Shown here: positions 155 through 15,754 of the stretch, piece by piece
How the letters are laid out: every line of letters starts with the position of its first letter
Position numbering within the stretch: the first letter of the stretch is position 1
IMG/VR virus record: IMGVR_UViG_3300045988_040537
Location: 1-15,754 of that record
Length of the DNA: 15,754 nucleotides
Reading direction: 5' to 3' (one strand)
DNA from: a virus
Program-made: the position numbers and the translations under genes
Notes under the pieces: model-generated
What the model was told of the DNA's origin: nothing
The model's input: only the letters and a program-made list of their open reading frames with translations
The model's database searches: none

Positions 155-558
155 CATGGAAGAGGTGAGTCGCAAGACCCGGGCGGCGATCCTCTCCATG
201 ACAGCCCGAACCGCGCGCGGGATTCACGTATGCGCGGACAGCCTGACAGCCTGACGCGAGAGCGTCAGACAGCCCGCCGCCGTGGCTGGTGGTGTGGTCG
301 TCGCCGCCGTGTATCTTGAAAACTGCATACAGGCCATGACAGCCCGGAACACGCGCAAACACGCCACGACGTGCAGAGCAGTAAAGCGCAGAGCGTGAAC
401 GTGTTTCCGGTGGGCAATCCTTAATGTTGTTTGGTAAATTGCCCGGCGGTATTCAACCCGCCTAAACATAGGGACAAAAATGTGGGATAGCCCTATGGGA
501 TGAAAAGTCTTTGAAAATTAAGACGAAACGCGCCCACGGCACGCCGCCACGCGCGGCG
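155..558 (+). ncRNA. GC-rich untranslated leader, candidate structured RNA (function unknown)
   Basis: No plus-strand ORF of 60 aa or more and no RBS. The region is visibly more GC-rich than the rest of the genome. A 5'-terminal stem pairs 155-165 with 191-200 (10 bp, one bulged A). A perfect 7-bp hairpin with a GAGA loop lies at 251-268. GACAGCC occurs five times. It lies directly downstream of the 121-149 promoter. Confidence 0.3.
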
Positions 559-594
559 CGTCGGCAAACACCAAATTTAACAACAAAAGGAGAA
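542..594 (+). repeat. Intergenic module copy 1: GC hairpin + CGTCGGCAAA + A-rich tract + RBS
   Basis: The hairpin pairs cgccgc (542-547) with gcggcg (553-558), followed immediately by cgtcggcaaacaccaaatttaacaacaaaaggagaa. Positions 555-594 match 933-972 at 38 of 40 positions. Confidence 0.85.
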
Positions 595-599
595 CTATT

Positions 600-926
600 A
601 TGAACACGAAAACCGCGATCCAGATTCTAGCTAATGAAAAGGTCAACACAATCCTAAATGAGCGAGACAACGCGCCATATAGCAAAACCGTAGCGCACCA
701 GACGCTGAACCGCCTAAATAGCTGTCAGGCATGGACATATGAAGATGGCTATTTTATCGTCCTTATCTCTTATAATACAGAAGTGGCGCGCATAGACACG
801 CGAACACGCATTTGCTATGATTATCTGCGTAAAGTCTACGGCTACACGGCAACCAGCGCACAGCACATTAGCAAATTCATGAAAAAGTTTGGGGTGATTA
901 AGAAAGTGACATACCGCCCGGTTTAA
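600..926 (+). CDS. Hypothetical early protein (108 aa)
   Basis: ATG lies 8 nt after AAAGGAG of module copy 1. It is the first ORF after the left-end promoter. I recognise no motif with confidence. Confidence 0.75.
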   Translation: MNTKTAIQILANEKVNTILNERDNAPYSKTVAHQTLNRLNSCQAWTYEDGYFIVLISYNTEVARIDTRTRICYDYLRKVYGYTATSAQHISKFMKKFGVIKKVTYRPV

Positions 927-972
927 TCGGGCGGCGCGTCGGCAAATACCAAAATTAACAACAAAAGGAGAA
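914..972 (+). repeat. Intergenic module copy 2
   Basis: The hairpin pairs ccgcccg (914-920) with cgggcgg (928-934). The TAA stop of the upstream ORF (924-926) sits in the loop. The sequence cgcgtcggcaaataccaaaattaacaacaaaaggagaa follows. Confidence 0.85.
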
Positions 973-978
973 AGAATT

Positions 979-1155
979 ATGAGAAGCTACACTGTAGTAT
1001 ATGACCCGAATAAGGGTTATTGCGCATGGGTAAGAGGGAATGGATTCAAATATCAGGTTTCTTTCTGGTACAAATCCCTCGCGCGTCTTAATCGCTATTG
1101 GGGTTTCCAGAACGGCATCCGTTTTAAATCTGTAAAGGACGTGGTTTACAAATGA
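979..1155 (+). CDS. Small hypothetical early protein (58 aa), absent from the ORF track
   Basis: My translation is MRSYTVVYDPNKGYCAWVRGNGFKYQVSFWYKSLARLNRYWGFQNGIRFKSVKDVVYK. The ATG lies 8 nt after AAAGGAG of module copy 2, the same geometry as the other two module-led genes. Confidence 0.65.
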   Translation: MRSYTVVYDPNKGYCAWVRGNGFKYQVSFWYKSLARLNRYWGFQNGIRFKSVKDVVYK

Positions 1156-1292
1156 CAGACGCAATCACACACGGCTTCGGCTGTACGGCGCTTTTCATCA
1201 TCATCAGCGCGATTAGTTTTTTAACCTTAATTGGCTTTGATTCTCTTTATCAGGAAATTAAAAAATGGTGGAAACATCGTCGAGGGAATTAA
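1152..1292 (+). CDS. Small putative membrane protein (46 aa), absent from the ORF track
   Basis: An ATGA start/stop overlap links it to the previous ORF. My translation is MTDAITHGFGCTALFIIISAISFLTLIGFDSLYQEIKKWWKHRRGN, which has one hydrophobic helix and a basic tail. Its TAA stop lies in the loop of the module 3 hairpin. Confidence 0.55.
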   Translation: MTDAITHGFGCTALFIIISAISFLTLIGFDSLYQEIKKWWKHRRGN

Positions 1293-1332
1293 TCCCTCGC
1301 GTCGGCAAATCCAAATAAACAACGAAAAGGAG
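1281..1332 (+). repeat. Intergenic module copy 3
   Basis: The hairpin pairs cgaggga (1281-1287) with tccctcg (1293-1299). The TAA stop (1290-1292) sits in the loop. The sequence cgtcggcaaatccaaataaacaacgaaaaggag follows. Confidence 0.8.
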
Positions 1333-1903: not shown

Positions 1904-2052
1904 TATGGCGTAGCCAGCAAGAGAATCCATATCTTTTCTTCCTCCGCGGGCGCAGCGCTCTCCCGCCAAACCCGCACACGGGCGGCACAGTTGCTTGTTC
2001 AGGTGCAACCCCTGATCCGCCCAAAATATCAACTCTTAGGAGGAACAACAAA

Positions 2053-2821: not shown

Positions 2822-3535
2822 ATGGCTAATGACTATTCTGCGGAATACGCTAAAGAAATAAAGCGAATAAAGAGCTTTACTTCTAAAGCAACTAAGAGGG
2901 GCTACAGATTCCCTGAAAATGTGGTTCCCGCAACGCCGAAAAGGGTAACTAAGAAATCACTAGAAAGAGTTCGCGCAATCACGCCACAAACACTATATCA
3001 AAAAGCAACATATTATGACCCGTTGACGGACGCTCTGTTTCCGGGCGAAGTAGGCCGCACCATTGAACGATCAAGAGCCGCGAAGAAGGCGGCAAAGACT
3101 AAATACGAAAAACACATAAAGACTACGGTTTCAGAACCCGGACAGCCACCTAACGACGTCGACACGGTGTTGCGATGGGTTGAAGATGAACTTGCTAAAT
3201 GGAACATCGAGGATTTAGGACTACCATCGTGGGCGCATTGGAAGCGCAGGACTATAACCTACGACAAGAACACCTTGCAAAGTGTACTTGATGGCGCAAT
3301 AGCCAGAGACGGCAGACGCGCAGTCGCACAAAGGTTACAAGCCCACGCCACACAGATAAACGATAACGTGACGGATATCCTATATAACATATCAGAACGA
3401 GCGAATGTAGCAAGTGAGCTTGTTTGGTTCGGGACAGTGATAAAGGGAGAAGCCTTAACCGAGCTAGAGCGTATGCGGATATCCGTTGCGGAAGTTGAAT
3501 TTGGTTGGGAAGATAATGAGGACGAGGTCTGGTAA
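2822..3535 (+). CDS. Candidate terminal protein (replication primer), 237 aa
   Basis: It lies immediately upstream of the protein-primed PolB and overlaps it, as phi29 gene 3 does with gene 2. The size is similar (237 versus 266 aa). The N-terminal half is basic and the C-terminus acidic. The genome has ITRs. I did not recognise any direct sequence motif. Confidence 0.6.
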   Translation: MANDYSAEYAKEIKRIKSFTSKATKRGYRFPENVVPATPKRVTKKSLERVRAITPQTLYQKATYYDPLTDALFPGEVGRTIERSRAAKKAAKTKYEKHIKTTVSEPGQPPNDVDTVLRWVEDELAKWNIEDLGLPSWAHWKRRTITYDKNTLQSVLDGAIARDGRRAVAQRLQAHATQINDNVTDILYNISERANVASELVWFGTVIKGEALTELERMRISVAEVEFGWEDNEDEVW

Positions 3536-5474
3536 AGTTTTGGTAGCCGACTTTGAAACAACCGTATACGAGGGGCAGGTCAATACAGAAGTTTGGGCGG
3601 CGGCGTGTGTTGAACTGTTCACAGAAGATGTGAAGATTTTTCACTCGATCGGTGAACTGTTCGACTACTTTGCCAGCCTAGAAAGCAACATCGTTTGCTA
3701 CTTCCACAACTTGAAGTTCGACGGTTCTTTCTGGCTAAGCTATCTCATGGATGTGCTCGGCTGGTCGCAAGCAATGGTTGTGCATGGCGAGGACGACATT
3801 GAATTTCTCAAGCCTAGGGAAATGCCAAACAACACATTTAGTTACAGCATATCTTCGATGGGGCAATGGTACAGAATACTTATTAAATACCGCAACAAGA
3901 TAATCGAATTGCGTGACAGCCTTAAACTACTACCATTCACAGTTGAAAAGATCGGTAAGAGCTTCAAGACAAAGCACAAGAAACTAGACATGGAGTACAC
4001 TGGTTTTCGCTTTGCTGGCTGCGAAATAACAGAGGACGAGAAAAAGTACATCGCCAACGACGTGCTTGTGGTCAAGGAAGCTGTTGAAATCATGTTTCAG
4101 GAAGGGCACAAGAAATTGACAATAGGGTCTTGCTGTTTGGCTGAGTATAGGCAGATTCTCGGCAACAAGAGATTCAACGAGCTTTTTCCTGATGTATATG
4201 AAATTCAGCTTGACGATTCATTTGGAAGTCCAAACGTTGGTAAATACATCAACCAGTCTTACCGGGGAGGATGGTGCTATTTAGCACGAGGAAAAGAACA
4301 GCAACTCAAGCATAATGGCACAACAGCAGATGTTAATTCACTGTACCCATCCATGATGTCGTCAGAATCCGGTAACACTTATCCCGTGGGAATCCCGACC
4401 TTTTGGCGAGGAGACTACATTCCAGAAGAAGCAAATGCTTACGACAAGTTTTATTTCGTTCGGTTCAAAACACGCTTTTATTTGCGCCCCGGAAAATTAC
4501 CTTTTATTCAGATAAAAAACACCCTTTCTTATCGTGCCAACGAAATGCTTGAATCCTCCGACCGCTATAACCCAGCAGATGGCAAGTATTACAAGGAGTA
4601 TTATGACGTAAACGGCGATTTACAGGAAGCAAGAGTTGTAATGACCATGACGCAGACCGACTTCAAGCTATTCAAGGAGCACTATGAACTGGTTGACTTT
4701 GAGATTCTGGATGGCTGTTACTTTGAAGCTAGAATAGGGATTTTTGACGAGTACATTGAGAAGTACAAGAAGATTAAGCTAGAGAGCACAGGAGCTAGGA
4801 GAGAGCTTGCTAAACTGTTCTTGAACAACCTGTACGGGAAAATGGCAAGTAGTCCTGTCAGCAACTTCAAGATAGCCTATCTAAAAGAGAACGGCGTAGT
4901 CGGCTTCAACACCATTCTAGCCAATGATAAGAAACCGGGCTACATCCCCGTCGGCTCTGCCATCACCAGTTACGCTAGATGCTTCACCATCCGCGCGGCA
5001 CAAGCGAACTATCAGGGCTCAGATAAACCCGGCTTCATCTACGCAGACACTGATTCAATACACTGTGACCTACCAGCAGACCAAATCAAGGGCATTAAAG
5101 TTCACGATAAGAATTTCTGTTGCTGGAAGCTAGAAAGTTCATGGGACGATGCTTACTTTGTGCGTCAGAAAACATACATTGAACATGTCACGCATGAGAA
5201 TCTTGAACCAGTAGACAAGCCTTATTACAGCGTTAAGTGCGCAGGAATGCCCCAGCACTGTAAAGACCTGTTCGTCATGAGTATGACAGGTGACTACGAC
5301 ACAGAACTAACAGAGGAAGAACAAGATTTTCTTTACTACGACAAAGAACACACGCAAAAGCACATTAGAACATTACAAGATTTTGATATAGGTCTATGTG
5401 TTCCCGGAAAACTTCGCCCTAAAACGATCAAAGGCGGCGTTCTGCTGGTGAACAGCATGTACCAAATGAGGTGA
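3516..5474 (+). CDS. Protein-primed family-B DNA polymerase
   Basis: Exonuclease motifs: ExoI VADFETT, ExoII FHNLKFDGSF, ExoIII YIANDVLV. Polymerase motifs: A DVNSLYPS, B KLFLNNLYGK, C YADTDS, and KxY QKTY. I prefer the ATG at 3516 to the TTG at 3486 used by the ORF track. The 20-nt overlap with the TP gene implies coupling. Confidence 0.95.
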   Translation: MRTRSGKVLVADFETTVYEGQVNTEVWAAACVELFTEDVKIFHSIGELFDYFASLESNIVCYFHNLKFDGSFWLSYLMDVLGWSQAMVVHGEDDIEFLKPREMPNNTFSYSISSMGQWYRILIKYRNKIIELRDSLKLLPFTVEKIGKSFKTKHKKLDMEYTGFRFAGCEITEDEKKYIANDVLVVKEAVEIMFQEGHKKLTIGSCCLAEYRQILGNKRFNELFPDVYEIQLDDSFGSPNVGKYINQSYRGGWCYLARGKEQQLKHNGTTADVNSLYPSMMSSESGNTYPVGIPTFWRGDYIPEEANAYDKFYFVRFKTRFYLRPGKLPFIQIKNTLSYRANEMLESSDRYNPADGKYYKEYYDVNGDLQEARVVMTMTQTDFKLFKEHYELVDFEILDGCYFEARIGIFDEYIEKYKKIKLESTGARRELAKLFLNNLYGKMASSPVSNFKIAYLKENGVVGFNTILANDKKPGYIPVGSAITSYARCFTIRAAQANYQGSDKPGFIYADTDSIHCDLPADQIKGIKVHDKNFCCWKLESSWDDAYFVRQKTYIEHVTHENLEPVDKPYYSVKCAGMPQHCKDLFVMSMTGDYDTELTEEEQDFLYYDKEHTQKHIRTLQDFDIGLCVPGKLRPKTIKGGVLLVNSMYQMR

Positions 5475-5922: not shown

Positions 5923-6957
5923 TTAATAAGAGAGTGCTTTGAGTACAGCTTCTTTACAACGGAGGTCTTTAAAGCGGAAACACCCATGCTCAAAATAGTA
6001 TCTCATGTTAGCAATAAAGAAGTCGTTCTTCTTGAGCATAACATAGTTCACGTCATGGTCGTCAGTTGTAACTGTAATGCGCACTCTGAATGTTCTGTCT
6101 GGTGTTGTATCACAGTATACAATTCCGCGCTCAGGGTATTCCCTGATTCCAAACTCCGTGTTTTTATACTTTAGTGTCGCAATGTATCTACTTTCGCCAG
6201 CAGGTTTCTCGATGAACGCCTGACTGTCATTCAGGTACACGCACTCACTCGAATATGCAACATAGCTATTGCGTGCAAAGGCTCTATTAAACCCACTTTC
6301 TTTCTGTGCCTTACTTGCACTATCGACAAACCCCTGTTCAAGCACAAAGCCGTCACCCCGGAGGAAGCGCGTGGAATCGTTAAGTCTTTCGCTTATACCC
6401 ATTTCCACATAGTAGGGATTGATTATCGACACAGGGTTGGCGCACATATAGACAGGCACATAACGCACCTGTTCGCCGTGACCTCTGGCAATACTGGTAT
6501 GCACAGACAGTAGCTTTCTAATTTCATCCTGACAGTAGTGATTAGTCTCACTCTGAAATTCATCGAAGAACATCCGTTGCACATCACTGAACAGGTGACT
6601 ATACTTTTTAAGCTGGTCTGCGCTGTTCAGGGAAATAGCATATCCGCAACTATCATCATCCAAATATAACTCATGGAAGATGCCAGAAGCGCGCCGTCTG
6701 CTTGTCATTACAGAACCTGCAAAGAACAGCCCAGCAATGTCCTTAAAGAATTTGTCTGCGCAATCATCCAGTTCATAGTTATACCTGTAAACAAGGCAGA
6801 ACTTTTCTCCACGATCTTTGAATCTGTTCACAAGCATACGGGAGAAGTACACAGTCTTACCGCCTGTGCGGTTAGTAGTACACATATAAATTTCCGGCTT
6901 CTTGCCATTCAGGTCTTTCATGCTGAGTAACTTTGTGCCATCATAATATTTTCCCAT
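5923..6957 (-). CDS. DNA encapsidation (packaging) ATPase, phi29 gp16-like
   Basis: Walker A is NRTGGKT and Walker B is MFFDEF. CANPVSIINPYYVEMGI parallels phi29 gp16 CLSNAVSVVNPYFLFFNL, and the C-terminal GCFRFKDLRCKEAVLKAL parallels GYLRFDNQVIRNIAYELF. AAAGGGAG RBS. Confidence 0.9.
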   Translation of the reverse strand: MGKYYDGTKLLSMKDLNGKKPEIYMCTTNRTGGKTVYFSRMLVNRFKDRGEKFCLVYRYNYELDDCADKFFKDIAGLFFAGSVMTSRRRASGIFHELYLDDDSCGYAISLNSADQLKKYSHLFSDVQRMFFDEFQSETNHYCQDEIRKLLSVHTSIARGHGEQVRYVPVYMCANPVSIINPYYVEMGISERLNDSTRFLRGDGFVLEQGFVDSASKAQKESGFNRAFARNSYVAYSSECVYLNDSQAFIEKPAGESRYIATLKYKNTEFGIREYPERGIVYCDTTPDRTFRVRITVTTDDHDVNYVMLKKNDFFIANMRYYFEHGCFRFKDLRCKEAVLKALSY

Positions 6958-6989
6958 TCGCTTGTCACTCCCTTTATCTATTCATAATC

Positions 6990-7018
6990 ATTATAACATA
7001 TTGCTTGACAAAAATCAA
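6990..7018 (-). promoter_or_regulatory. Leftward promoter for the packaging ATPase
   Basis: Read on the minus strand: -35 TTGATT (7018-7013), a 17-nt spacer, extended -10 TGtTATAAT (6998-6990). Confidence 0.6.
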
Positions 7019-7033
7019 CCCCTATGATATAAT
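7005..7033 (+). promoter_or_regulatory. Rightward promoter for the lysis/structural operon
   Basis: TTGACA (7005-7010), a 17-nt spacer, extended -10 TGaTATAAT (7025-7033). Confidence 0.75.
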
Positions 7034-7082
7034 TTATAGTAGGTTAAAGACCTGAAAATTAAAAATGAAACGGAGTGGTCGC

Positions 7083-7541
7083 ATGAAGATGGACGTATTC
7101 AAAGCCGCAGTCGCCGCCGCAATTGGAGCGCTTGTTGCTTATGGGGTACAGCTTTTCATCCCCTGTATCGTGCTTGTTGTAGTCATGCTGTTGGACTACA
7201 TCACCGGCATGGTGAAGGCGTGGGAAGCTGGCGAACTGAGTAGCAAGATCGGTATCAAAGGCATTCTCAAGAAGTTGGGCTACCTTGTTATCGTATCTGT
7301 AGCGTGTGTGGTGGACTGGTGTGTGCGCTATGGCGCGGAAAGTGTTGGTATGGATTGGAAGTTTGAATTTCTGTTTGCTTCCATCGTGCTTCTCTGGCTG
7401 GTTATTAATGAACTTATTTCAATCCTCGAAAACGTCTCAGCCATTGGCGCGCCCGTCCCTGCTTTCCTGACAACAATTATTAACAAACTCAAGACCAGTA
7501 CTGAGAACAAGGTAGGTGACAACGAAGATGAAAATCATTGA
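7083..7541 (+). CDS. Holin (Phage_holin_4_1 / toxin-secretion holin type)
   Basis: Several hydrophobic helices. The signature LDYITGMVKAW...SSKIGIKGILKKLGYLVIV is typical of holin family 4_1. GGAG lies 7 nt before the ATG at 7083. The ATG at 7065 is possible but has no RBS. Confidence 0.85.
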   Translation: MKMDVFKAAVAAAIGALVAYGVQLFIPCIVLVVVMLLDYITGMVKAWEAGELSSKIGIKGILKKLGYLVIVSVACVVDWCVRYGAESVGMDWKFEFLFASIVLLWLVINELISILENVSAIGAPVPAFLTTIINKLKTSTENKVGDNEDENH

Positions 7542-8220
7542 ACAGGATTATCATTGGCACGGCGGGCTGACTAAGCGTGAACACACAGACCTGATCGTGC
7601 TACATCACGCCGCCGCAAGTTCCTGTACCGCTATGGATGTTCATAGCTGGCACGTTGCGAACGGTTGGGTAGGCATTGGCTATCACTTCTTTGTGCGGAA
7701 GGACGGCTCGATCTATCGTGGCAGACCTGAACAGTGCGTTGGCGCACACGCTTACGGCGCTAACTATCACTCTATCGGCATTTGCTTCGAGGGCAACTTC
7801 ATGACGGAGACAATGCCTGACGCACAGATCAAGGCTGGCGCTGAGCTGGTGAAGTATCTGAAAAATAAGTGGGGCGTTTCGTGGGTGGCTAAGCACAAGG
7901 ACATTGGAACCACGGATTGCCCCGGCACGTATTTCCCGTTTGACAAGATTGCACACGGGTGTGCGGAAGAAATTAAGAATGAAGGAGCTGAAAAAATTAT
8001 GGTCGAAACTATCGAAATTGGCAATGGCGACCGTGGCAACGCGGTCAAGACCTTGCAGGGTGCGCTTATCGCGCAGGGCTATGCAATGCCGAAGTATGGC
8101 GCTGATGGCGTTTGCGGCGGTGAGACTGTCAGCGCCATTCGCAGTTTCCAGAGCGCCCACGGCCTGAAAGCTGATGGTATTTGTGGTAAAAACACATGGG
8201 GTGCTCTGCTAAGAGGGTGA
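7528..8220 (+). CDS. Endolysin: N-acetylmuramoyl-L-alanine amidase (Amidase_2/PGRP) + PG_binding_1 domain
   Basis: HHAA...GIGYHFFVRKDGSIYRGRP...GAHAYGANYHSIGICFEGNF...HKDIGTTDCPG carries the Zn ligands H, H and C as in T7 lysozyme. The C-terminal VKTLQGALIAQGY...DGVCGGETVSAIRSFQSAHGLKADGICGKNTWGAL is a peptidoglycan-binding repeat. The ATG at 7528 overlaps the holin end. Confidence 0.9.
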   Translation: MKIIEQDYHWHGGLTKREHTDLIVLHHAAASSCTAMDVHSWHVANGWVGIGYHFFVRKDGSIYRGRPEQCVGAHAYGANYHSIGICFEGNFMTETMPDAQIKAGAELVKYLKNKWGVSWVAKHKDIGTTDCPGTYFPFDKIAHGCAEEIKNEGAEKIMVETIEIGNGDRGNAVKTLQGALIAQGYAMPKYGADGVCGGETVSAIRSFQSAHGLKADGICGKNTWGALLRG

Positions 8221-9498: not shown

Positions 9499-10941
9499 AT
9501 GCCCAGACGCGTATCTGTAAGCACCCTGAACGCTTCCACTATGGACATTCTGAATACCATTCGCCAGAACGCTGGCTATGAGTATCAGAGCCTTGTCCCG
9601 GAGGTTACTAAGGAAACCGACATTCCGCGTGTCGGTGAGGTTCTGGTTGGCTATCCCTCTCTAGCTAACCAGTTCATCAACGCCCTTATCAACCGCATCG
9701 CTCTTGTGAGGGTTAAGAGCGCAACCTTTAATAACGCCTATGCTATGCTCAAGAAGGGTTATCTTGAGATGGGCGAAGTCGTCGAAGAGGTTTTCGTCAA
9801 TATCTGCAAAGCGCGTGAGTTTTCCGTCGAGAAGGCCGCGGGTAGAGAGCTGAAACGTAGCGTACCGGATGTTCGTTCCGCTTTCCACGCTATGAACTGG
9901 CGCGTCCAGTACCCCGTGACTATTCAGGAGCAGGATCTCCAGCAGGCTTTTCTGAGCATGAGTGGCGTACAGGATCTTATCGCCCGCATTGTGGATGCTG
10001 TGTATACTGCCGCAGAGTACGACGAGTTTCTGCTTTTCAAGTACCTGATTATCAAGGCTTACAACGCCAATAAGATTTTCAAGGTGCATATCACGGGCAC
10101 GACGGCGGCTATTAAAAATGATGCCGCTATCTATCGCGGCTATTCCAATGGGCTGACGTTCATGAGTGACAAGTACAACGCTTCCGGAGTGACCACCATC
10201 ACGAAGAAAGAAGATCAGTACCTCTTCATGGACACGCAGTACAATGCGCAGTATGACGTGGAAGTGCTTGCTTCTGCGTTCAACATGGGCAAGGCCGACT
10301 ATCAGGGTAGACTGACGCTGATTGATTCTTTCAGCGAGTTCGACAATGATCGTTTCTCCGAGATCGTCGCTAACTCTGACATGCTCGACCCTGTCACTCC
10401 GGCTGAGCTGACTGCCATGCAGAACGTCAAGGCGATTCTGTTTGACAGCGAGTGGTTCCAGGTTTATGACAACCTGACTAAGTTCACGGAGACGTATGTT
10501 GCTTCCGGTATGTACTGGAACTACTTCCTGAACATGTGGAAAACCGTGTCCTATTCCCCGTTCTCGAACGCTATCGCGTTCACTACCGAAGCTGTTGATG
10601 CCGCGCCCGATTCTATCACTATCCCGGTCGTTTCCGTGGACAAGAGTGATACCTCTACCGTGGTTACATTTGGTAATGCTGAGAGTGACAACAAGGCTGT
10701 CGGTGTTCGTTTCGTCCAGACCCAGCAGATGGTTGAGGACGCGACGGCTGTTCACCCGTATGGCGCTATCATCTATCAGGCGAACGCCAACGCGGCGCTT
10801 GTTCAGGTGGCGTACAAGCAGGCTGACGGAAGCGAGAAACTGTATGTCAGTCAGAATAGCGGCGGGACTGCCGCCGCGACGTTTGACTACACGACCGCGA
10901 AGCCCGGCGACAGTGTCACCTTTAAGCCTGTTGCTGGATAA
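9499..10941 (+). CDS. Major capsid protein (phi29 gp8-like) with C-terminal extra domain
   Basis: Blocks parallel my recollection of phi29 gp8. [19 protein letters not shown] matches [45 protein letters not shown] matches [37 protein letters not shown]...[25 protein letters not shown] matches WFMVYDNLHKM...[25 protein letters not shown]. Confidence 0.92.
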   Translation: [480 protein letters not shown]

Positions 10942-10962
10942 GCTGACGGCTTGGGTAAAATA

Positions 10963-10988
10963 GGGAGTGGGGCATGTGCTCCACTCCC
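10963..10988 (+). promoter_or_regulatory. Stem-loop after the capsid gene (possible attenuator or mRNA stabiliser)
   Basis: gggagtgg (10963-10970) pairs with ccactccc (10981-10988) around a 10-nt loop. No T-tract follows. Confidence 0.4.
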
Positions 10989-11004
10989 GGCTGGGAGGAT
11001 TACG

Positions 11005-12687
11005 ATGTATATCGCACCTAATACAAATATCAGAATCCTGAAAGACGTTCCGCTGGAACCGAGCTACGAGAACACGCTGTACTTCTCTAGCCTTAGCGCA
11101 CAGACCAACTACTTTAGCAGTAAGGCCAAATATAGCCTAACGCAAAATACTTATCAGCGAGTAAACCGTGGGGTTATCCGAGTTGGGGTTAAGGCTGACA
11201 ACCTGTATGACTGCAACTATGTCATGTTCCAGAATGCCGGGTATGGCAATAAGTGGTTTTATGCGTTCATTCTTCAAGTGGAGTTTGTCAATAACACTAC
11301 TGCCGATATCTATTTCGGAATTGATGTTATGCAGACGTATGCATTTGACTACACGCTAAAGGAATGCATGATCGAGAGACAGCATGCCGAATCCGATGAA
11401 ATCGGAGAGAACCTTGTACCAGAGGGTTTGGAGACAGGTGAGTATGTCAGTGAGAATATAACTAATATTGAAAGTCTAAAACCCAACTCAATTGTAATAG
11501 GCGTAGCCGCTACCGAGAACGCCGGTGATTTTTACGGCGGCTATTTTAACGGAACATATTCCGGGATTAACTACTTGGCTTATCCCAACACACTGGTGGG
11601 TGCAAAGCTTTGTCAGAACAAACTTGAACTTCTGACACAATCGGTTAATAATAAGGCAGATAGTATTGTTAGTCTGTTCCTTATGCCAACAGAGATGGTC
11701 GGTACGGATGGCTCGGAACTGACTGTTAAACGGTTCTTACTTGGCGGTGACAACCCTAAGAGCTTCAATGGATATAAGCCGAGAAATAATAAGCTATTCA
11801 CTGAGCCTTACAGTTTCTTAGCCGTGTCTACCAGAACTGGTAACAGCGCAACGTATGGGTGGGAATTTTTCAATCGAGGTAGCGCTGAGGATGACTACGT
11901 TTTCTACTACTTCGGCGACACTACCCCAAACCCTAGCGTGTGGCTTACTCCGCTGAACTATAAGGGGCTTGCAGTAAACGACGATGAAGCGTGTGTTATG
12001 ACTGGCTTCCCGCAGGTAGCGTATACAATTGATACCTATCGCGCTTGGGTGGCACAATCCAGCGGTGTTGTCGCGATGAACGCTATGACTGCTGGTTATG
12101 GGGCATATGCTAAAACCAATGCCGTTGCCGAAAATGCCGCCGCCGCACACATGACCGCAACAATCAAGGCACAGCAAGCCAGTGCCAATTTTGCCAAAAC
12201 TCTTAGCGCCGCTAACGCCGCAAAGGCCACGGCGACGAGAGCCGCCGCCACAGAAGCTGGAACTGCCTCTGCCGCCGCCGCCGCCGCTGTCGGGCCAGCC
12301 GCTATCGGTGCTGTCGCCCTTAGTGTGCTTGGCGCTGTTATCGAACATGCGCGTATGCCTACAGTTGCGAAGGGAATCCAAAGTTCTATGGTGTGGGCTG
12401 GTAGAAAAGCTATGACTTTCTACTTTGACCATAGACATATCACTCGCCAGTTTGCTGAAATTATCGATAGCTATTTCGACATGTACGGTTACGCCCAACA
12501 CAAGGTTGGCGTACCCAACAGAAATGTCAGAAGACATTGGACATATGTTAAAACTGTCGGGTGCGCGGTAGTTGGCTCGATGCCTGCGGATGATATGCGC
12601 AAGATTCAGGAAATTTTTGATGCTGGCATTAGATTCTGGAACACCCCCGGCGAAGTGGGCAATTACTCGCTGGATAATACTCTGTGA
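11005..12687 (+). CDS. Tail knob / distal tail tube protein (phi29 gp9-like)
   Basis: YVMFQNAGYGNKWFYAFILQVEF matches phi29 gp9 YIMFQNADYGNKWFYAFVTELEF. IFDAGIRFWNTPGEVGNYSLDN matches IFDNGITLWHTDNIGNYSVEN. GGGAGGA RBS lies 5 nt before the ATG at 11005. Confidence 0.92.
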   Translation: MYIAPNTNIRILKDVPLEPSYENTLYFSSLSAQTNYFSSKAKYSLTQNTYQRVNRGVIRVGVKADNLYDCNYVMFQNAGYGNKWFYAFILQVEFVNNTTADIYFGIDVMQTYAFDYTLKECMIERQHAESDEIGENLVPEGLETGEYVSENITNIESLKPNSIVIGVAATENAGDFYGGYFNGTYSGINYLAYPNTLVGAKLCQNKLELLTQSVNNKADSIVSLFLMPTEMVGTDGSELTVKRFLLGGDNPKSFNGYKPRNNKLFTEPYSFLAVSTRTGNSATYGWEFFNRGSAEDDYVFYYFGDTTPNPSVWLTPLNYKGLAVNDDEACVMTGFPQVAYTIDTYRAWVAQSSGVVAMNAMTAGYGAYAKTNAVAENAAAAHMTATIKAQQASANFAKTLSAANAAKATATRAAATEAGTASAAAAAAVGPAAIGAVALSVLGAVIEHARMPTVAKGIQSSMVWAGRKAMTFYFDHRHITRQFAEIIDSYFDMYGYAQHKVGVPNRNVRRHWTYVKTVGCAVVGSMPADDMRKIQEIFDAGIRFWNTPGEVGNYSLDNTL

Positions 12688-12702: not shown

Positions 12703-13581
12703 ATGAGCAGAAAAAACAAGCAGTTTTGGGAATCGGTTGTAATGAACAACGCGACTTGGGCACAGTACGCTAGGCGGCTTACGGAACTTAGCATTTCGAT
12801 GTTTGAATGGAAGAACCTGCCTGATAGCGTTGACCCTAGGTTTCTGGAACTTACCCTTTTCGGAGACGGGCAGGCTGTGTTCTTTAGGGATGAAGTTATG
12901 GGCTACCTTGCTTTGCAATGCGCCGCAAACGGTAACTTCAACCAGTACAGAATTCCAACAAGAAGAAGAGCATATGCTGTTAATGGCTATCAGAAGGATT
13001 TAGATATGAACGATAGTGTGATTATCTATAACAACTATCTAAGAACCAACAGTTGGCTCGATGTGCAGATGTTCGCGAAAAGACTGTATAATCTTGACCG
13101 CGCTATCGACGTTAATGCCAATGCGCAGAAAACCCCTATCCTGCTACTTTGTGACGAGAACCAGAGGTTGACCGTTGAGAACGTGTACATGCAGTATGAC
13201 GGTAATATGCCGGTGATTTTTGGTGATCGTGGCCTTAATACTGGCATGGAAATGAAAACCTTGAATACTCAAGCACCGTTTGTGTGTGATAAGCTGTATG
13301 AACTTAAAACGCAGTTGTGGAACGAAGCCCTGACGTATTTGGGAATTAGTTCTGTGAACAGTGTAAAGAAGGAAAGGCTTATCACCGACGAGGTTACACG
13401 GAACCTTGGCGCAACTGTTGCAAGTAGGTATAGCAGACTGCAAGCAAGGAAAGAAGCCTGTCAACAGATCAATAGAATGTTTGGTCTGAATCTCGACTGC
13501 GAGTATCGTAGTGATATCAGGTATATCGAGGACGAAGATCAAGCGCCTGCCAGCGATGAGGAGGTTGATACTAATGAGTAA
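12703..13581 (+). CDS. Portal / upper collar (connector) protein (phi29 gp10-like)
   Basis: MFEWKNLPDSVDPRFLE matches gp10 LFEWENLPPTINPSFLE. VNANAQKTPILL matches VNQNAQKTPVLI. KKERLITDEV matches KKERMVTDEV. REEACQQINRMFGLN matches REEACEKINELYGLN. The tail is acidic. Confidence 0.92.
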   Translation: MSRKNKQFWESVVMNNATWAQYARRLTELSISMFEWKNLPDSVDPRFLELTLFGDGQAVFFRDEVMGYLALQCAANGNFNQYRIPTRRRAYAVNGYQKDLDMNDSVIIYNNYLRTNSWLDVQMFAKRLYNLDRAIDVNANAQKTPILLLCDENQRLTVENVYMQYDGNMPVIFGDRGLNTGMEMKTLNTQAPFVCDKLYELKTQLWNEALTYLGISSVNSVKKERLITDEVTRNLGATVASRYSRLQARKEACQQINRMFGLNLDCEYRSDIRYIEDEDQAPASDEEVDTNE

Positions 13582-14236
13582 TTACACAACTGAATTGCGC
13601 TGGTGGTGCGAACAGGTGACTGAAATGGCCGGGGAATCGCCCAGTAAAGTCATTCCAAAAGCCGCACCGATGCTGTTTGATTTTAGTTACCCATTTTGGT
13701 CAAACAATCTCAACGACAAAACAGCATTTCAAATTAAGATTGTTCGACATTTCTACACCAGAGAAATAGGGGCTGAAACAATGGGGCTTTTTAGGCTTAG
13801 GCTTGAAGATAAAATGAATGAAATCATGCCCTATTTTAATAAGCTATATAGCGCCGCCTACAAGGAGTTCAATTTCCTTAACACAGACGAGGCAAACGAG
13901 AAAGAAAATTCAAGTGCAAACAACAAGAATAGCTATACTAGCACAAGCGCACAAACAGGAAAGAGCATCGACAAATTCTCCGACACTCCGCAGGGCGCTA
14001 TCACTGATTTGGAAAGCGGGGCATATTTGACCAATGCGACAATCTCAGAGAATGAATCAAATGGAAGTAATAACGGCGGGAACACCGGAGAAGCAACGAG
14101 CGAAACAACAAGAACATATACAGGAAGAAAAGGGGCTTCTGGTGGGCGGCTTTTAAGCGACTACTACGAAGCACAGAAAAACATAGACAGAATGCTGTTT
14201 GATGAACTGAACGTGCTGTTTATGAATATTTGGTAA
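13574..14236 (+). CDS. Lower collar protein (phi29 gp11-like)
   Basis: It follows the portal gene directly (ATGAGTAA overlap, GAGGAGG RBS). HFYTREIGAETMGLFRLRLEDKMNEIMPYFNKLY fits the ..Y.REIG.ET...F...L...MNEIMP.YN.LY pattern I associate with picovirus lower-collar proteins. Confidence 0.7.
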   Translation: MSNYTTELRWWCEQVTEMAGESPSKVIPKAAPMLFDFSYPFWSNNLNDKTAFQIKIVRHFYTREIGAETMGLFRLRLEDKMNEIMPYFNKLYSAAYKEFNFLNTDEANEKENSSANNKNSYTSTSAQTGKSIDKFSDTPQGAITDLESGAYLTNATISENESNGSNNGGNTGEATSETTRTYTGRKGASGGRLLSDYYEAQKNIDRMLFDELNVLFMNIW

Positions 14237-15665: not shown

Positions 15666-15674
15666 ATTTGGTGT

Positions 15675-15714
15675 GGCTGGCGTGTGCCTTGCGGTGCGCG
15701 CCAGCCGTCTTTTT
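15675..15714 (+). terminator. Intrinsic terminator of the late operon
   Basis: ggctggcg (15675-15682) pairs with cgccagcc (15699-15706), followed by gtcttttt. Confidence 0.8.
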
Positions 15715-15722
15715 GCGCTTCA

Positions 15723-15754
15723 ACTGGAGTACCGAAAAAATGCATACGGATACC
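15723..15754. repeat. Right inverted terminal repeat (32 bp)
   Basis: actggagtaccgaaaaaatgcatacggatacc is the exact reverse complement of 1-32. Confidence 0.95.

Follow-up and report, generated by a model that had tools for sequence, protein, structure and literature searches.

A phi29-like podovirus of gut Firmicutes carries three copies of a compact intergenic module in its left-end accessory operon, and comparison with related genomes shows, at the level of sequence, that such modules are the boundaries of gene cassettes. With moderate confidence, we read the module as an RNA-level insulator coupled to a standard leader for translation, and its shared sequence as what drives the shuffling of cassettes by homologous recombination. 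The window, which is the whole stretch of 15,754 nt that was analysed, is a complete phage genome of 15.7 kb with 32-nt inverted terminal repeats, and both here and in relatives the modules are confined to the left-end operon.

Architecture of the left-end modules

In each module, a GC hairpin, which either overlaps the stop codon of the preceding gene or comes immediately after it, is followed by the invariant CGTCGGCAAA, an unstructured C/A-rich leader, a Shine–Dalgarno sequence (SD) and the start codon, with a GUC-to-start distance of 39–41 nt in the window. The features of the left end are as follows.

121–149, + strand: candidate left-end promoter, read from sequence (−35 TTGCAT 121–126, TG 141–142, −10 TATACT 144–149)
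320–541, + strand: conserved non-coding region adjoining module 1 upstream, with module 1 as its 3′ boundary
542–558, + strand: module 1 hairpin, CGCCGC-cacgc-GCGGCG
559–599, + strand: module 1 core and leader, CGTCGGCAAA 559–568, C/A-rich leader, SD GGAG 589–592, start 600, GUC to start 40 nt
600–926, + strand: cassette 1, gene A, 108 aa, DUF8033 family (PF26096)
914–934, + strand: module 2 hairpin, CCGCCCG-gtttaat-CGGGCGG, gene A stop TAA 924–926 in the loop
935–978, + strand: module 2 spacer CG, core and leader, CGTCGGCAAA 937–946, SD GGAG 967–970, start 979, GUC to start 41 nt
979–1292, + strand: cassette 2, genes B (979–1155, 58 aa) and C (1152–1292, 46 aa, hydrophobic)
1281–1299, + strand: module 3 hairpin, CGAGGGA-attaa-TCCCTCG, gene C stop TAA 1290–1292 in the loop
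1300–1339, + strand: module 3 core and leader, CGTCGGCAAA 1300–1309, SD GGAG 1329–1332, start 1340, GUC to start 39 nt
1340–1863, + strand: cassette 3, genes D (1340–1630, 96 aa) and E (1627–1863, 78 aa, Cys-rich)

The first-pass annotation had described a triplicated arrangement of hairpin, invariant core, A-rich tract and ribosome-binding site, and all of its features are present in the sequence, including the upstream stop codon in the hairpin loop of copies 2 and 3 and the match of copies 1 and 2 at 38 of 40 positions (555–594 versus 933–972), which was borne out by direct count. The same two copies form repeat family D4, with 93% identity over 45 nt. CGTCGGCAAA occurs exactly at 559, 937 and 1300, each time on the + strand; dinucleotide shuffles contain a mean of 0.04 matches, and 0 of 200 shuffles reach three. 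It adjoins the hairpin in copies 1 and 3 and follows a 2-nt gap (CG) in copy 2. Folding energies of the hairpin windows are −13 to −18 kcal/mol, compared with a mean of −4.3 kcal/mol for other 35-nt windows of the same regions, and the hairpin at 914–934 can be extended to 9 bp using one G·U pair. GUC is unpaired between two helices, the small second one being merely GG/CC in the three copies of the window. Variants of AACAAC(A/G)AAAGGAG stand before two other genes as well, the p6-like and SSB genes at 2044 and 2350 (repeat family D1), so this string is not specific to the module; it is the general ribosome-binding context of the phage's early genes, and hairpin, (C)GUCGGCAA and CCAAA are the module-specific part.

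The genes behind the three modules belong to unrelated families and the repeats are therefore not by-products of gene duplication, which removes paralogy as their source. Genes B and C overlap with no module between them and always co-travel in relatives, and the protein of gene A is always present in relatives' arrays. The promoter scan finds no site in 542–599, 914–978 or 1281–1339, and no TAnnnT −10 at suitable spacing is visible by eye in the leader; a promoter within the module was accordingly rejected. A strong promoter lies at 1875–1903, downstream of cassette 3, the last of the array. The whole array would be driven by the left-end promoter at 121–149, which is conserved in one relative (L021) and replaced at the equivalent position of another (L006) by two TTGACA-N17-TATAAT/TACAAT promoters; because its score falls under the cut-off of the promoter scan, we infer this promoter. 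Module 1 is preceded by the non-coding region, with no upstream gene. That region (320–541) is 85–94% identical to relatives versus ~82% for adjacent genes, has no long ORF and no Rfam match, and is a candidate prohead RNA or structured leader. A cross-subclade consensus fold was dropped because the alignment was too poor for any structure, and pairing of the core with this region as an antisense or guide RNA was rejected, cognate duplex energies being no better than those of shuffled cores.

Cassette boundaries and selection on RNA structure

Searching related phages for the motif, as the first-pass annotation had proposed, reveals the module architecture 68 times in 14 close genomes and some 23 times in two subclades that are more remote, taken together (cores GUCUGGU and GUCGGG). 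The core is GTCGGCAA in 61 of the 68; the second subclade (p6-like protein 43–49% identical) contributes 20 modules with core GTCTGGT, and L066 three with core GTCGGG. The core is uniform within a genome and differs between subclades (GUCGGC, GUCUGG, GUCGGG), and post-core spacer variants tend to resemble each other within one genome. Across modules, GUC lies 37–42 nt from the start codon, and the leader is mostly A (59%) and C (26%), with 9% U and 6% G. Subclades I and II together contain 88 modules, with stems of 4–11 bp; those of the window measure 6–9 bp. The cultured relatives CS229P1–3 have no such modules, the early genes of CS229P2 being tightly packed, and eight further IMG/VR matches to CGCGTCGGCAAA-N-CCAAA, which have neither hairpin nor SD, were discarded as chance matches. 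The MAG bin labels of relatives are unreliable as host indicators.

Cassette maps of the 14 genomes contain arrays of three to seven cassettes with a module at every cassette boundary. Cassette content and order vary among genomes: cassette X occupies two different positions, and cassettes Y, Z, A′ and f21 occur in some genomes and are missing from others. Modules that bound every cassette, in arrays that vary in this way, establish the cassette-boundary reading. Nucleotide identity steps at the modules (non-coding region 85–94%, A 82–83%, BC 81–84%, DE 93–96%), and in relatives the identity to the gene-D leader begins within the core. The hairpin co-travels with the gene before it and the 3′ leader with the gene after it, which places the crossover in the core; crossovers seem to be spread over several positions within the module, in the manner of homologous exchange. 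In relatives, the hairpin sequence of module 1 is found at the end of the non-coding region and also of cassettes X and Y.

While stem sequences diverge, their pairing is maintained. The 28 and 18 distinct hairpin sequences all form Watson–Crick or G·U stems ending 0–3 nt before GUC, and the hairpin window reaches −8 kcal/mol or lower in 33 of 37 modules versus 12% of control windows. Orthologues of the hairpin behind gene A have 97.8% of cells paired, compared with 28–49% for slid controls, and show compensatory double changes at two pairs. Single stem transitions yield G·U on the + strand in six cases and A·C in none; among orthologues of the module 3 hairpin, A-to-G changes keep the pairing as G·U. 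Transitions confined to G·U fit + strand RNA and not duplex DNA or the opposite strand. Selection on RNA structure and not on stem sequence is thus supported by the alignments, in keeping with the RNA-level function that the first-pass annotation had proposed from conserved structure and divergent stems, where it offered alternatives with no choice among them. Some of the conservation of the core could be due to gene conversion among the copies instead of function.

The earlier view that the hairpins are not classical terminators also stands. No U-tract follows any of the three, the tails being CGTCGGCAAA (copies 1 and 3) and CGCGTCGGCA (copy 2), and none appears in the terminator scan; the apparent terminators elsewhere in the phage have 16–17-bp stems, at 2758–2804 followed by TTCTAC and at 15673–15708 followed by a T-run. 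Lacking both a promoter and a U-tract, the module is not a PeSL element of T4-like phages, nor is it a terminator.

A proposed RNA insulator and alternative readings

On the reading that we favour, the three copies are the junctions of a promoter-less cassette array in the left-end accessory operon, which would be co-transcribed from the left-end promoter as a polycistronic RNA. Each cassette comprises one or two ORFs, ends in its own GC-rich stem-loop overlapping the stop codon, and starts with the shared leader, that is (C)GUCGGCAA, an optional 3-bp GGC/GCC helix, the unstructured C/A-rich tract, SD and start codon. In the mechanism that we propose, the hairpin may act as a structural insulator, blocking exonucleolytic decay from both sides and keeping the next ribosome-binding site free of pairing with coding sequence upstream, while the G/U-poor leader would provide an identical open translation-initiation region for cassettes of any origin. 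The invariant GUC(N)GG at the hairpin foot is most likely where an endoribonuclease or RNA-binding protein makes contact or cuts; cleavage or protein binding would then take place at GUC, and RNA processing at CGUCGGCAAA is a candidate role. At the DNA level, comparison of the genomes shows the outcome: the leader is the sole sequence common to unrelated cassettes, and exchange between modules by homologous recombination inserts, deletes and reorders them. Structured RNA elements at like positions in more distant relatives lend the RNA reading support by analogy, as do the clustered hammerheads of prophage operons (PMC3088659). Points that weigh against the insulator reading are the score of the left-end promoter below the scan cut-off, a second helix of just GG/CC in the window's copies, the possible share of gene conversion in the conservation of the core, the lack of a recognisable RNase or RNA-binding protein in the genome, and the cultured relatives that do without modules. 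A bolder version, which we consider rather unlikely, is that hairpin, GUC and mini-helix form a previously undescribed RNA punctuation that cuts the transcript into gene-length mRNAs and is coupled to recombinase-free, integron-like swapping. Such punctuation might operate through cleavage or binding by a host or phage factor, or through self-cleavage.

The phi29-like phages have among the smallest genomes of tailed phages, and the gut clade studied here keeps a left-end plug-in slot for accessory genes. The rule that we propose is that a small ORF, given the standard leader and a 3′ GC hairpin, is expressed from the common promoter and movable by plain homologous recombination, which would amount to a concrete rule for gene flux in very small phages. 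The modules could serve as natural context-independent expression adaptors for Firmicutes, and the partner of GUC(N)GG between two helices could represent a new RNase or RNA-binding specificity. If the punctuation reading is true, the same signal would also define the recombinase-free swapping of accessory genes among tiny phi29-like gut phages.

A coordinate translational operator is an unlikely alternative to the insulator reading, although the one that survives best. T4 RegA, which regulates many early mRNAs, would be its analogue: a phage or host RNA-binding protein on the hairpin foot, GUC(N)GG and the second helix of every cassette leader would switch the accessory set off or on jointly. 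Such a protein would account for the same short motif at a fixed 37–42 nt from every start and for selection on + strand RNA, and a core that is uniform per genome and different between subclades is expected if it co-evolves with a trans factor. However, within-genome uniformity is also expected from gene conversion, and the motif lies at least 20 nt upstream of the SD, where binding would not obviously occlude the ribosome. A candidate RNA-binding protein was not found among the phage proteins; those of the window include no recognisable RNase, RNA-binding protein, recombinase or integrase. The DUF8033 protein of gene A was considered as the trans factor and set aside, since its AlphaFold model, although confident (pLDDT 87.5), has no informative match among PDB folds (none better than E 0.26), and a PDB sequence search with genes A and E returned no match.

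Less likely again is a series of leaky transcription attenuators, in which the hairpins would pause or partly terminate the polymerase and grade expression along the array, a role that has been proposed for PeSL stem-loops. The hairpins are indeed stable, intergenic and on the coding strand, and a PeSL stem-loop lowered the expression of a downstream reporter to about the same degree as a strong terminator did (PMC2839356). Yet the 8–9 nt after the stems are G/C-rich (CGCGUCGGC) with a single U and thus offer no weak RNA–DNA hybrid to release, translating ribosomes would melt hairpins that contain stop codons, and the phage's apparent terminators use 16–17-bp stems instead. We regard as equally doubtful that the module is a recombination scaffold only, with a leader kept by exchange or gene conversion, hairpins that are relic terminators and an RNA role confined to that of an ordinary ribosome-binding site. 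The direct sight of cassette shuffling at modules and the likeness of spacer variants within a genome speak for this reading, but compensatory changes and the 6:0 ratio of G·U to A·C show ongoing selection on + strand pairing, the architecture outlasts complete change of core and stem sequence between subclades, and the GUC-to-start distance is tightly constrained.

Lower still in probability is a novel RNA-processing signal, either a self-cleaving motif of minimal size or a degenerate punctuation mark, tRNA-like or derived from a ribozyme, that a host tRNA-processing enzyme or another RNase would cut. An unpaired GUC flanked by two helices would suit such a signal, as would several elements of relatives: the tRNA model RF00005 matches the leader of the p6-like gene in L067 and L023 at 42.5 and 41.7 bits (gathering score 29), a junction of L063 gives a twister-sister-like match, and T-loop-like hairpins (GGUGCAAGUCC or GGUUCAAAUCC) recur at distant relatives' junctions. 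Against this, the L063 match scores 23.3 bits, under its gathering score of 34, and no Rfam ribozyme model matches the window at gathering score. At E up to 10, positions 1–2100 and 440–1400 contain no hammerhead, twister, twister-sister, pistol or hatchet, and the window's modules have no ribozyme or tRNA match; likewise, ARAGORN and RF00005 find no tRNA-like element in the window. The conserved part is smaller than any known ribozyme core. A GGGAUGA-stem-CGAAAC-hairpin-GUC stretch before module 1 is conserved across subclades, but a canonical hammerhead was rejected there, as the stretch lacks C3/U4, stem I and an Rfam match; modules 2 and 3, with coding sequence only upstream, have no counterpart of its upstream half.

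Chi sites are read by host RecBCD/AddAB and are over-represented and strand-skewed in the host genome. A DNA-level site, whether a Chi-like hotspot for host AddAB/RexAB or an integron-like site-specific crossover that reads the folded hairpin, is very improbable: the motif is asymmetric, in one orientation and exactly at cassette boundaries, GCGCGTC (most copies) is one base off GCGCGTG, the Chi of Lactococcus/Streptococcus (PMC5959072), which may not be the host's, and the array is integron-like in its promoter-less, one-orientation cassettes and its structure-conserved, sequence-variable junction hairpins, but no recombinase or integrase is encoded, the core lacks the inverse-core pairing needed by attC, crossovers seem to fall at differing module points, like homologous exchange, and G·U-only transitions favour RNA over duplex DNA.

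Relation to known intergenic elements

The closest comparison is with PeSL elements, to which the first-pass annotation had likened the module as a possible cassette boundary. Like PeSL of T4-like phages, the module is a repeated composite intergenic motif of upstream stop, stem-loop, SD and downstream start (PMC2839356, PMC4122927). It too is concentrated among variable small early genes, where indels and replacements between phages map and recombination between copies shuffles genes; in our 14 genomes, such events between relatives map to the module, whose stable stem-loop is bounded by an upstream stop and a downstream SD and start. PeSL is defined as a strong sigma-70 early promoter joined to a stem-loop (PMC2839356). 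The promoter, with an AT-rich upstream element, makes each gene its own transcription unit, and the stem-loop is proposed to work as a terminator or attenuator, exchange between copies giving mini-circles (PMC2839356, PMC4122927). In contrast, the module has no −35/−10, its cassettes depend on an upstream promoter, and its conserved part is GUC(N)GG plus leader. The likeness extends to the flanking of variable cassettes and stops short of PeSL membership, with no promoter in any module. The phages differ as well, PeSL residing in T4-like myoviruses and the module in a 15.7-kb phi29-like podovirus.

Repeated intercistronic hairpins in early polycistronic RNA are also a feature of T7 and Bacillus phage SP82, whose RNase III sites are long, irregular stem-loops spanning about two turns of helix (~20 bp or more), often with an internal loop, and whose early RNA retains after processing a 3′ hairpin that stabilises the upstream mRNA. 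Stems of 6–9 bp in the window, and of 4–11 bp in the 88 modules, are too short for RNase III. Integrons rely on a tyrosine-recombinase integrase and on attC sites of 57–141 nt with extrahelical bases, in which the core GTTRRRY pairs with an inverse core. The module array resembles theirs in its promoter-less, one-orientation cassettes behind a common promoter, which vary in number and order, and in a junction hairpin conserved structurally, not in sequence, beside a short conserved core. Unlike integrons, however, the window encodes no integrase or other recombinase, its hairpins are 6–9 bp, its core is not GTTRRRY and has no inverse-core pairing (an upstream GAC pairs with GUC in some copies only), and the data point to selection at the RNA level and to homologous exchange.

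The start-associated sequence (SAS) comprises 13 bp very close to the start codon, whereas the module core lies 37–42 nt upstream. The SAS/ESAS elements of Cluster K mycobacteriophages are nevertheless comparable as a one-orientation motif in front of some of the genes, frequently with an inverted repeat upstream and with a consensus that varies by subcluster (PMC3203893). The ESAS inverted repeats are a conserved 17-bp sequence (PMC3203893), whereas the module conserves structure alone, as its 28 distinct hairpins illustrate.

Clustered hammerheads flank variable genes in prophage operons and are proposed to divide a polycistronic RNA into gene-length mRNAs (PMC3088659). The module similarly places structured RNA between single genes or short blocks of a long transcript, with variation in the flanked genes, although the window has no ribozyme-model match and the module is far smaller than known cores. 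The tRNA-like, and possibly ribozyme-like, elements at equivalent positions in distant relatives suggest that RNA punctuation is general, and unexplored, in this phage group.

Genome context of the modules

The window ends in perfect 32-nt inverted terminal repeats (1–32 and 15723–15754) and encodes the following recognisable proteins:

2053–2358, phi29-type dsDNA-binding (p6-like) protein
2374–2751, phi29-type SSB
2822–3535, candidate terminal protein, from position and size, without a family match
3486–5474, protein-primed family-B DNA polymerase
5926–6957, minus strand, packaging ATPase
7065–7538, holin
7516–8217, amidase endolysin
9499–10938, Phi29_MCP capsid protein
10951–12684, tail knob
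12703–13578, connector
13511–14233, lower collar

The nearest deposited genomes are those of the Clostridium symbiosum phages CS229P1-3 and human-faecal phage contigs, at ~65% DNA identity across the polymerase and packaging genes. The terminal repeats, the gene set and these neighbours identify the window as a small phi29-like podovirus genome, complete and linear, with protein-primed replication and a host among the gut Firmicutes. The modules sit in a left-end operon of small, function-unassigned genes, 5′ of a perfect sigma-70 promoter (1875–1903). A perfect 14-bp palindrome, GTTAAATATTTAAC (1859–1872), lies 2 bp 5′ of the −35 box of this promoter, is kept in relatives and looks like an operator. 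Further along, a divergent promoter region (6940–7033) separates the packaging ATPase gene on the minus strand from the holin and late genes. Its plus strand holds a perfect TTGACA-17-TATAAT at 7005–7033, and its minus strand has three promoter-like sites that overlap one another.

The protein of gene A (600–926) is a DUF8033 member (PF26096) with the invariant motif YGYTATSAQHI.KF, and all module-bearing genomes encode it, some of them twice. Its AlphaFold model is confident (pLDDT 87.5); a fold search against the PDB found no structural relative (best match, E 0.26). No recombinase, RNase or RNA-binding protein is recognisable among the proteins encoded by the genome.

Modules as boundaries of exchanged cassettes

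Each module comprises a GC hairpin at or over the upstream stop codon, a fixed core starting with GUC, a C/A-rich leader, an SD and a start codon. The positions reported by the first-pass annotation are borne out: the hairpins (542–558, 914–934 and 1281–1299), A-rich tract, SD and ATG are all present with three exact copies of CGTCGGCAAA (559, 937 and 1300), and the loops of hairpins 2 and 3 enclose the stop codons of genes A and C. The expected number of exact copies is 0.04, and none of 200 shuffles reached three. Folding energies are −13 to −18 kcal/mol for the hairpin windows, compared with an average of −4.3 kcal/mol elsewhere in these regions. The module is narrower than originally drawn, with the hairpin, (C)GUCGGCAA and CCAAA being module-specific, whereas AACAAC(A/G)AAAGGAG provides the ribosome-binding context of early genes in this phage generally and also precedes the p6-like and SSB genes.

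A motif scan of viral contigs returned two genomes, one carrying 5 modules and the other 4. Further genomes came from searches independent of the motif, in which the p6-like protein was run against viral, metagenome and genome collections and contigs that encode gene A homologues were looked up. The 14 close genomes hold 68 modules, 61 of them with the core GTCGGCAA and the others with the variants GTAGGC, GCCGGC and GTCGGCT(T/A). A second subclade of five genomes, whose p6-like protein is 43–49% identical, has 20 modules of the same layout with the core GTCTGGT, and one more module-bearing genome (L066) has GTCGGG. The layout therefore outlasts complete sequence turnover, and the core is uniform inside each genome but different between subclades. 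The module is thus a genuine feature that its lineage conserves. It is absent from more distant relatives (~30% p6 identity) and from the cultured CS229 phages, in which early genes directly adjoin one another, and we found no description of such a module in a review of phi29-like phages (PMC11476376).

Modules do not occupy all gene junctions. The overlapping pairs B/C (979–1155 and 1152–1292) and D/E (1340–1630 and 1627–1863) have no internal module and always travel together, and all boundaries between cassette units are modules. With a module before each unit, the window is the minimal array, A-BC-DE, and the 14 close genomes carry 3–7 cassettes, including X-A-BC-Y-DE, A-BC-Z-DE, X-X-A-BC-Z-DE, A-BC-A′-X-DE and X-A-Y′-BC-A′-f21-DE. 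Cassette X occurs at the array head or directly 5′ of DE, with diverged copies at both sites in one genome (L021), and in the second subclade an extra p6 paralogue forms a cassette flanked by modules. These comparisons bear out the expectation that relatives would carry modules at the boundaries of variable cassettes.

The two halves of a module follow different genes. The hairpin accompanies the gene that it follows (X, Y and most non-coding-region copies end CGCCGC-cacgc-GCGGCG, A ends CCGCCCGAT... and C ends CGAGGGAA...), and the 3′ part of the leader stays with the downstream gene. Module 3 of the window equals the left half of the after-C module of the related genome L006 and the right half of its before-D module, joined in the core. 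Between genomes, nucleotide identity shifts at modules, from 85–94% in the non-coding region to 82–83% in A, 81–84% in BC, 93–96% in DE and 93–97% in p6. Recombination between shared leaders would give such patterns, and the crossovers, which seem to fall at varied points in the module, fit homologous rather than site-specific exchange. Comparison of the genomes shows the module as a conserved, strand-specific, structure-constrained junction at which cassette content changes exactly.

The proposal of a cassette boundary like PeSL is therefore supported by the relatives in its first part only. A PeSL is by definition a stem-loop linked to a strong sigma-70 promoter (PMC2839356), and the promoter scan shows no such promoter in the modules, which rules PeSL out. 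The module is best filed with the repeated regulatory junctions through which modular shuffling proceeds; this one lacks a promoter and belongs to a phi29-like phage. A gene-duplication by-product is ruled out because the genes flanked by modules are unrelated.

The GC-rich non-coding stretch 3′ of the candidate left-end promoter (157–541, conserved core 320–541) exceeds the neighbouring genes in conservation (85–94% vs ~82%), with blocks such as CCTT(A/T)(A/T)TGTTGTTTGG and GATGA-stem-CGAAAC common to the subclades. In phi29 the prohead RNA (pRNA) is encoded at the genome's left end, and by analogy this stretch is a pRNA candidate; an Rfam search of it gave no match. Three copies of TGACAGCC(C/T)G..., two as CCATGACAGCCCG (repeat families D5 and D19), lie at 199–357, in the part absent from L006.

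RNA structure and a possible mechanism

The hairpins vary in sequence (28 distinct among the 68 modules of the close genomes, 18 among the 20 of the second subclade), with stems of 4–11 bp that in every case stop 0–3 nt 5′ of GUC. In the orthologous hairpin 3′ of gene A, 97.8% of cells are paired, compared with 28–49% in slid controls, and at two pairs both bases have changed in a compensatory way (C-G to A-U and G-C to A-U), a covariation matched by 7 of 500 shuffles. Among single transitions in the stems of all hairpin families, six leave the coding strand with a G·U pair and not one produces A·C, the change tolerated only by the opposite strand (probability ~0.016 at a simple 50:50 expectation), which points to selection on the plus-strand RNA rather than on duplex DNA. 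Right 3′ of GUC there is room for a small second helix (for example GGC/GCC, UGGU/ACCA, UGGC/GCCA, GGG/CCC and once the 7-bp UGGAAUU/AAUUCCA, the GGG/CCC and 7-bp cases identified by eye), which can form in 50 of the 68 modules and 19 of the 20, vs 7% and 22% of shuffles. It is probable for the family and weak in the window, where the three copies offer only GG/CC. From core to SD the leader consists of 59% A, 26% C, 9% U and 6% G; the start codon is 37–42 nt 3′ of GUC in the close subclade and 39–41 nt in the window. The RNA-level role proposed at first is thus supported by sequence comparison as structure, though not yet as mechanism.

Known RNA elements do not account for the module. A T7-type RNase III site is ruled out by the short stems, and a known ribozyme or tRNA-like element by searches of the window without a match. 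An intrinsic terminator is ruled out by the G/C-rich tail: as first noted, no U-tract follows any of the three hairpins, and none was returned by the terminator scan. Terminator-like hairpins of this phage have 16–17-bp stems, at 2758–2804 (followed by TTCTAC) and 15673–15708 (followed by a T-run). The former, a perfect 17-bp inverted repeat directly 3′ of the SSB gene and unlike the short module hairpins, probably serves as terminator for the p6/SSB unit.

We suggest that the candidate left-end promoter (121–149) drives the whole array as a single transcript, since the scan found no strong promoter 5′ of 1875 and gave only two weaker sites there, both within gene A. The hairpin would insulate adjoining cistrons, blocking 3′-to-5′ and 5′-to-3′ exonucleases and keeping the leader free of pairing with coding sequence 5′ of it, the G/U-poor leader would act as a context-independent initiation region, and GUC(N)GG at the hairpin foot may be a contact or cleavage site of a putative factor. 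Prophage operons provide a documented precedent, in which variable genes are flanked by clustered hammerheads (PMC3088659).

Structured RNAs in the p6-like leader and in distant relatives

Other structured RNAs at equivalent positions in more distant relatives (conserved-loop hairpins, a weak twister-sister-like match at one junction, and tRNA-model matches in the p6-like gene leader) argue, indirectly, for an RNA-processing theme. These relatives have repeated junction elements of their own, in which a variable-stem hairpin with a conserved 7-nt loop (GG-UGCAAGU-CC or GG-UUCAAAU-CC) is followed by a second hairpin and then by a leader ending in an SD, in these related genomes:

L023, at 357, 825, 1214 and 2101
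L063, at 377, 707, 1130 and 1573
L031, at 1242; L040, at 1489
L067, at 1202 and 1584; L069, at 1126 and 2299

These elements may be a variant ribozyme or tRNA-like class; L063 600–690 matches the twister-sister model weakly (23.3 bits, E 0.93, gathering score 34), mainly through the conserved-loop hairpin.

The p6-like gene leader is also structured. In the window (1980–2022), an outer stem GGGCGG/CCGCCC, compensated to GGTCGG/CCGACC in the related genomes L006 and L007, surrounds the T-loop-like hairpin CAGG-ugcaacc-CCTG. At this position two distant relatives have Rfam tRNA matches over threshold (L067 2566–2650 and L023 3749–3815; 42.5 and 41.7 bits), and L015 and L066 a cloverleaf-like fold. 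An ARAGORN scan of L015, L023 and the window called no tRNA.

In another distant relative, L044, the junctions at 470, 887 and 1859 carry GCCGA(T/C)GATGG(C/T)AAACCA 5′ of the SD. The piece GGCAAAC...CCAAA is common to the window core and two of these three copies, which hints that it predates the subclades.
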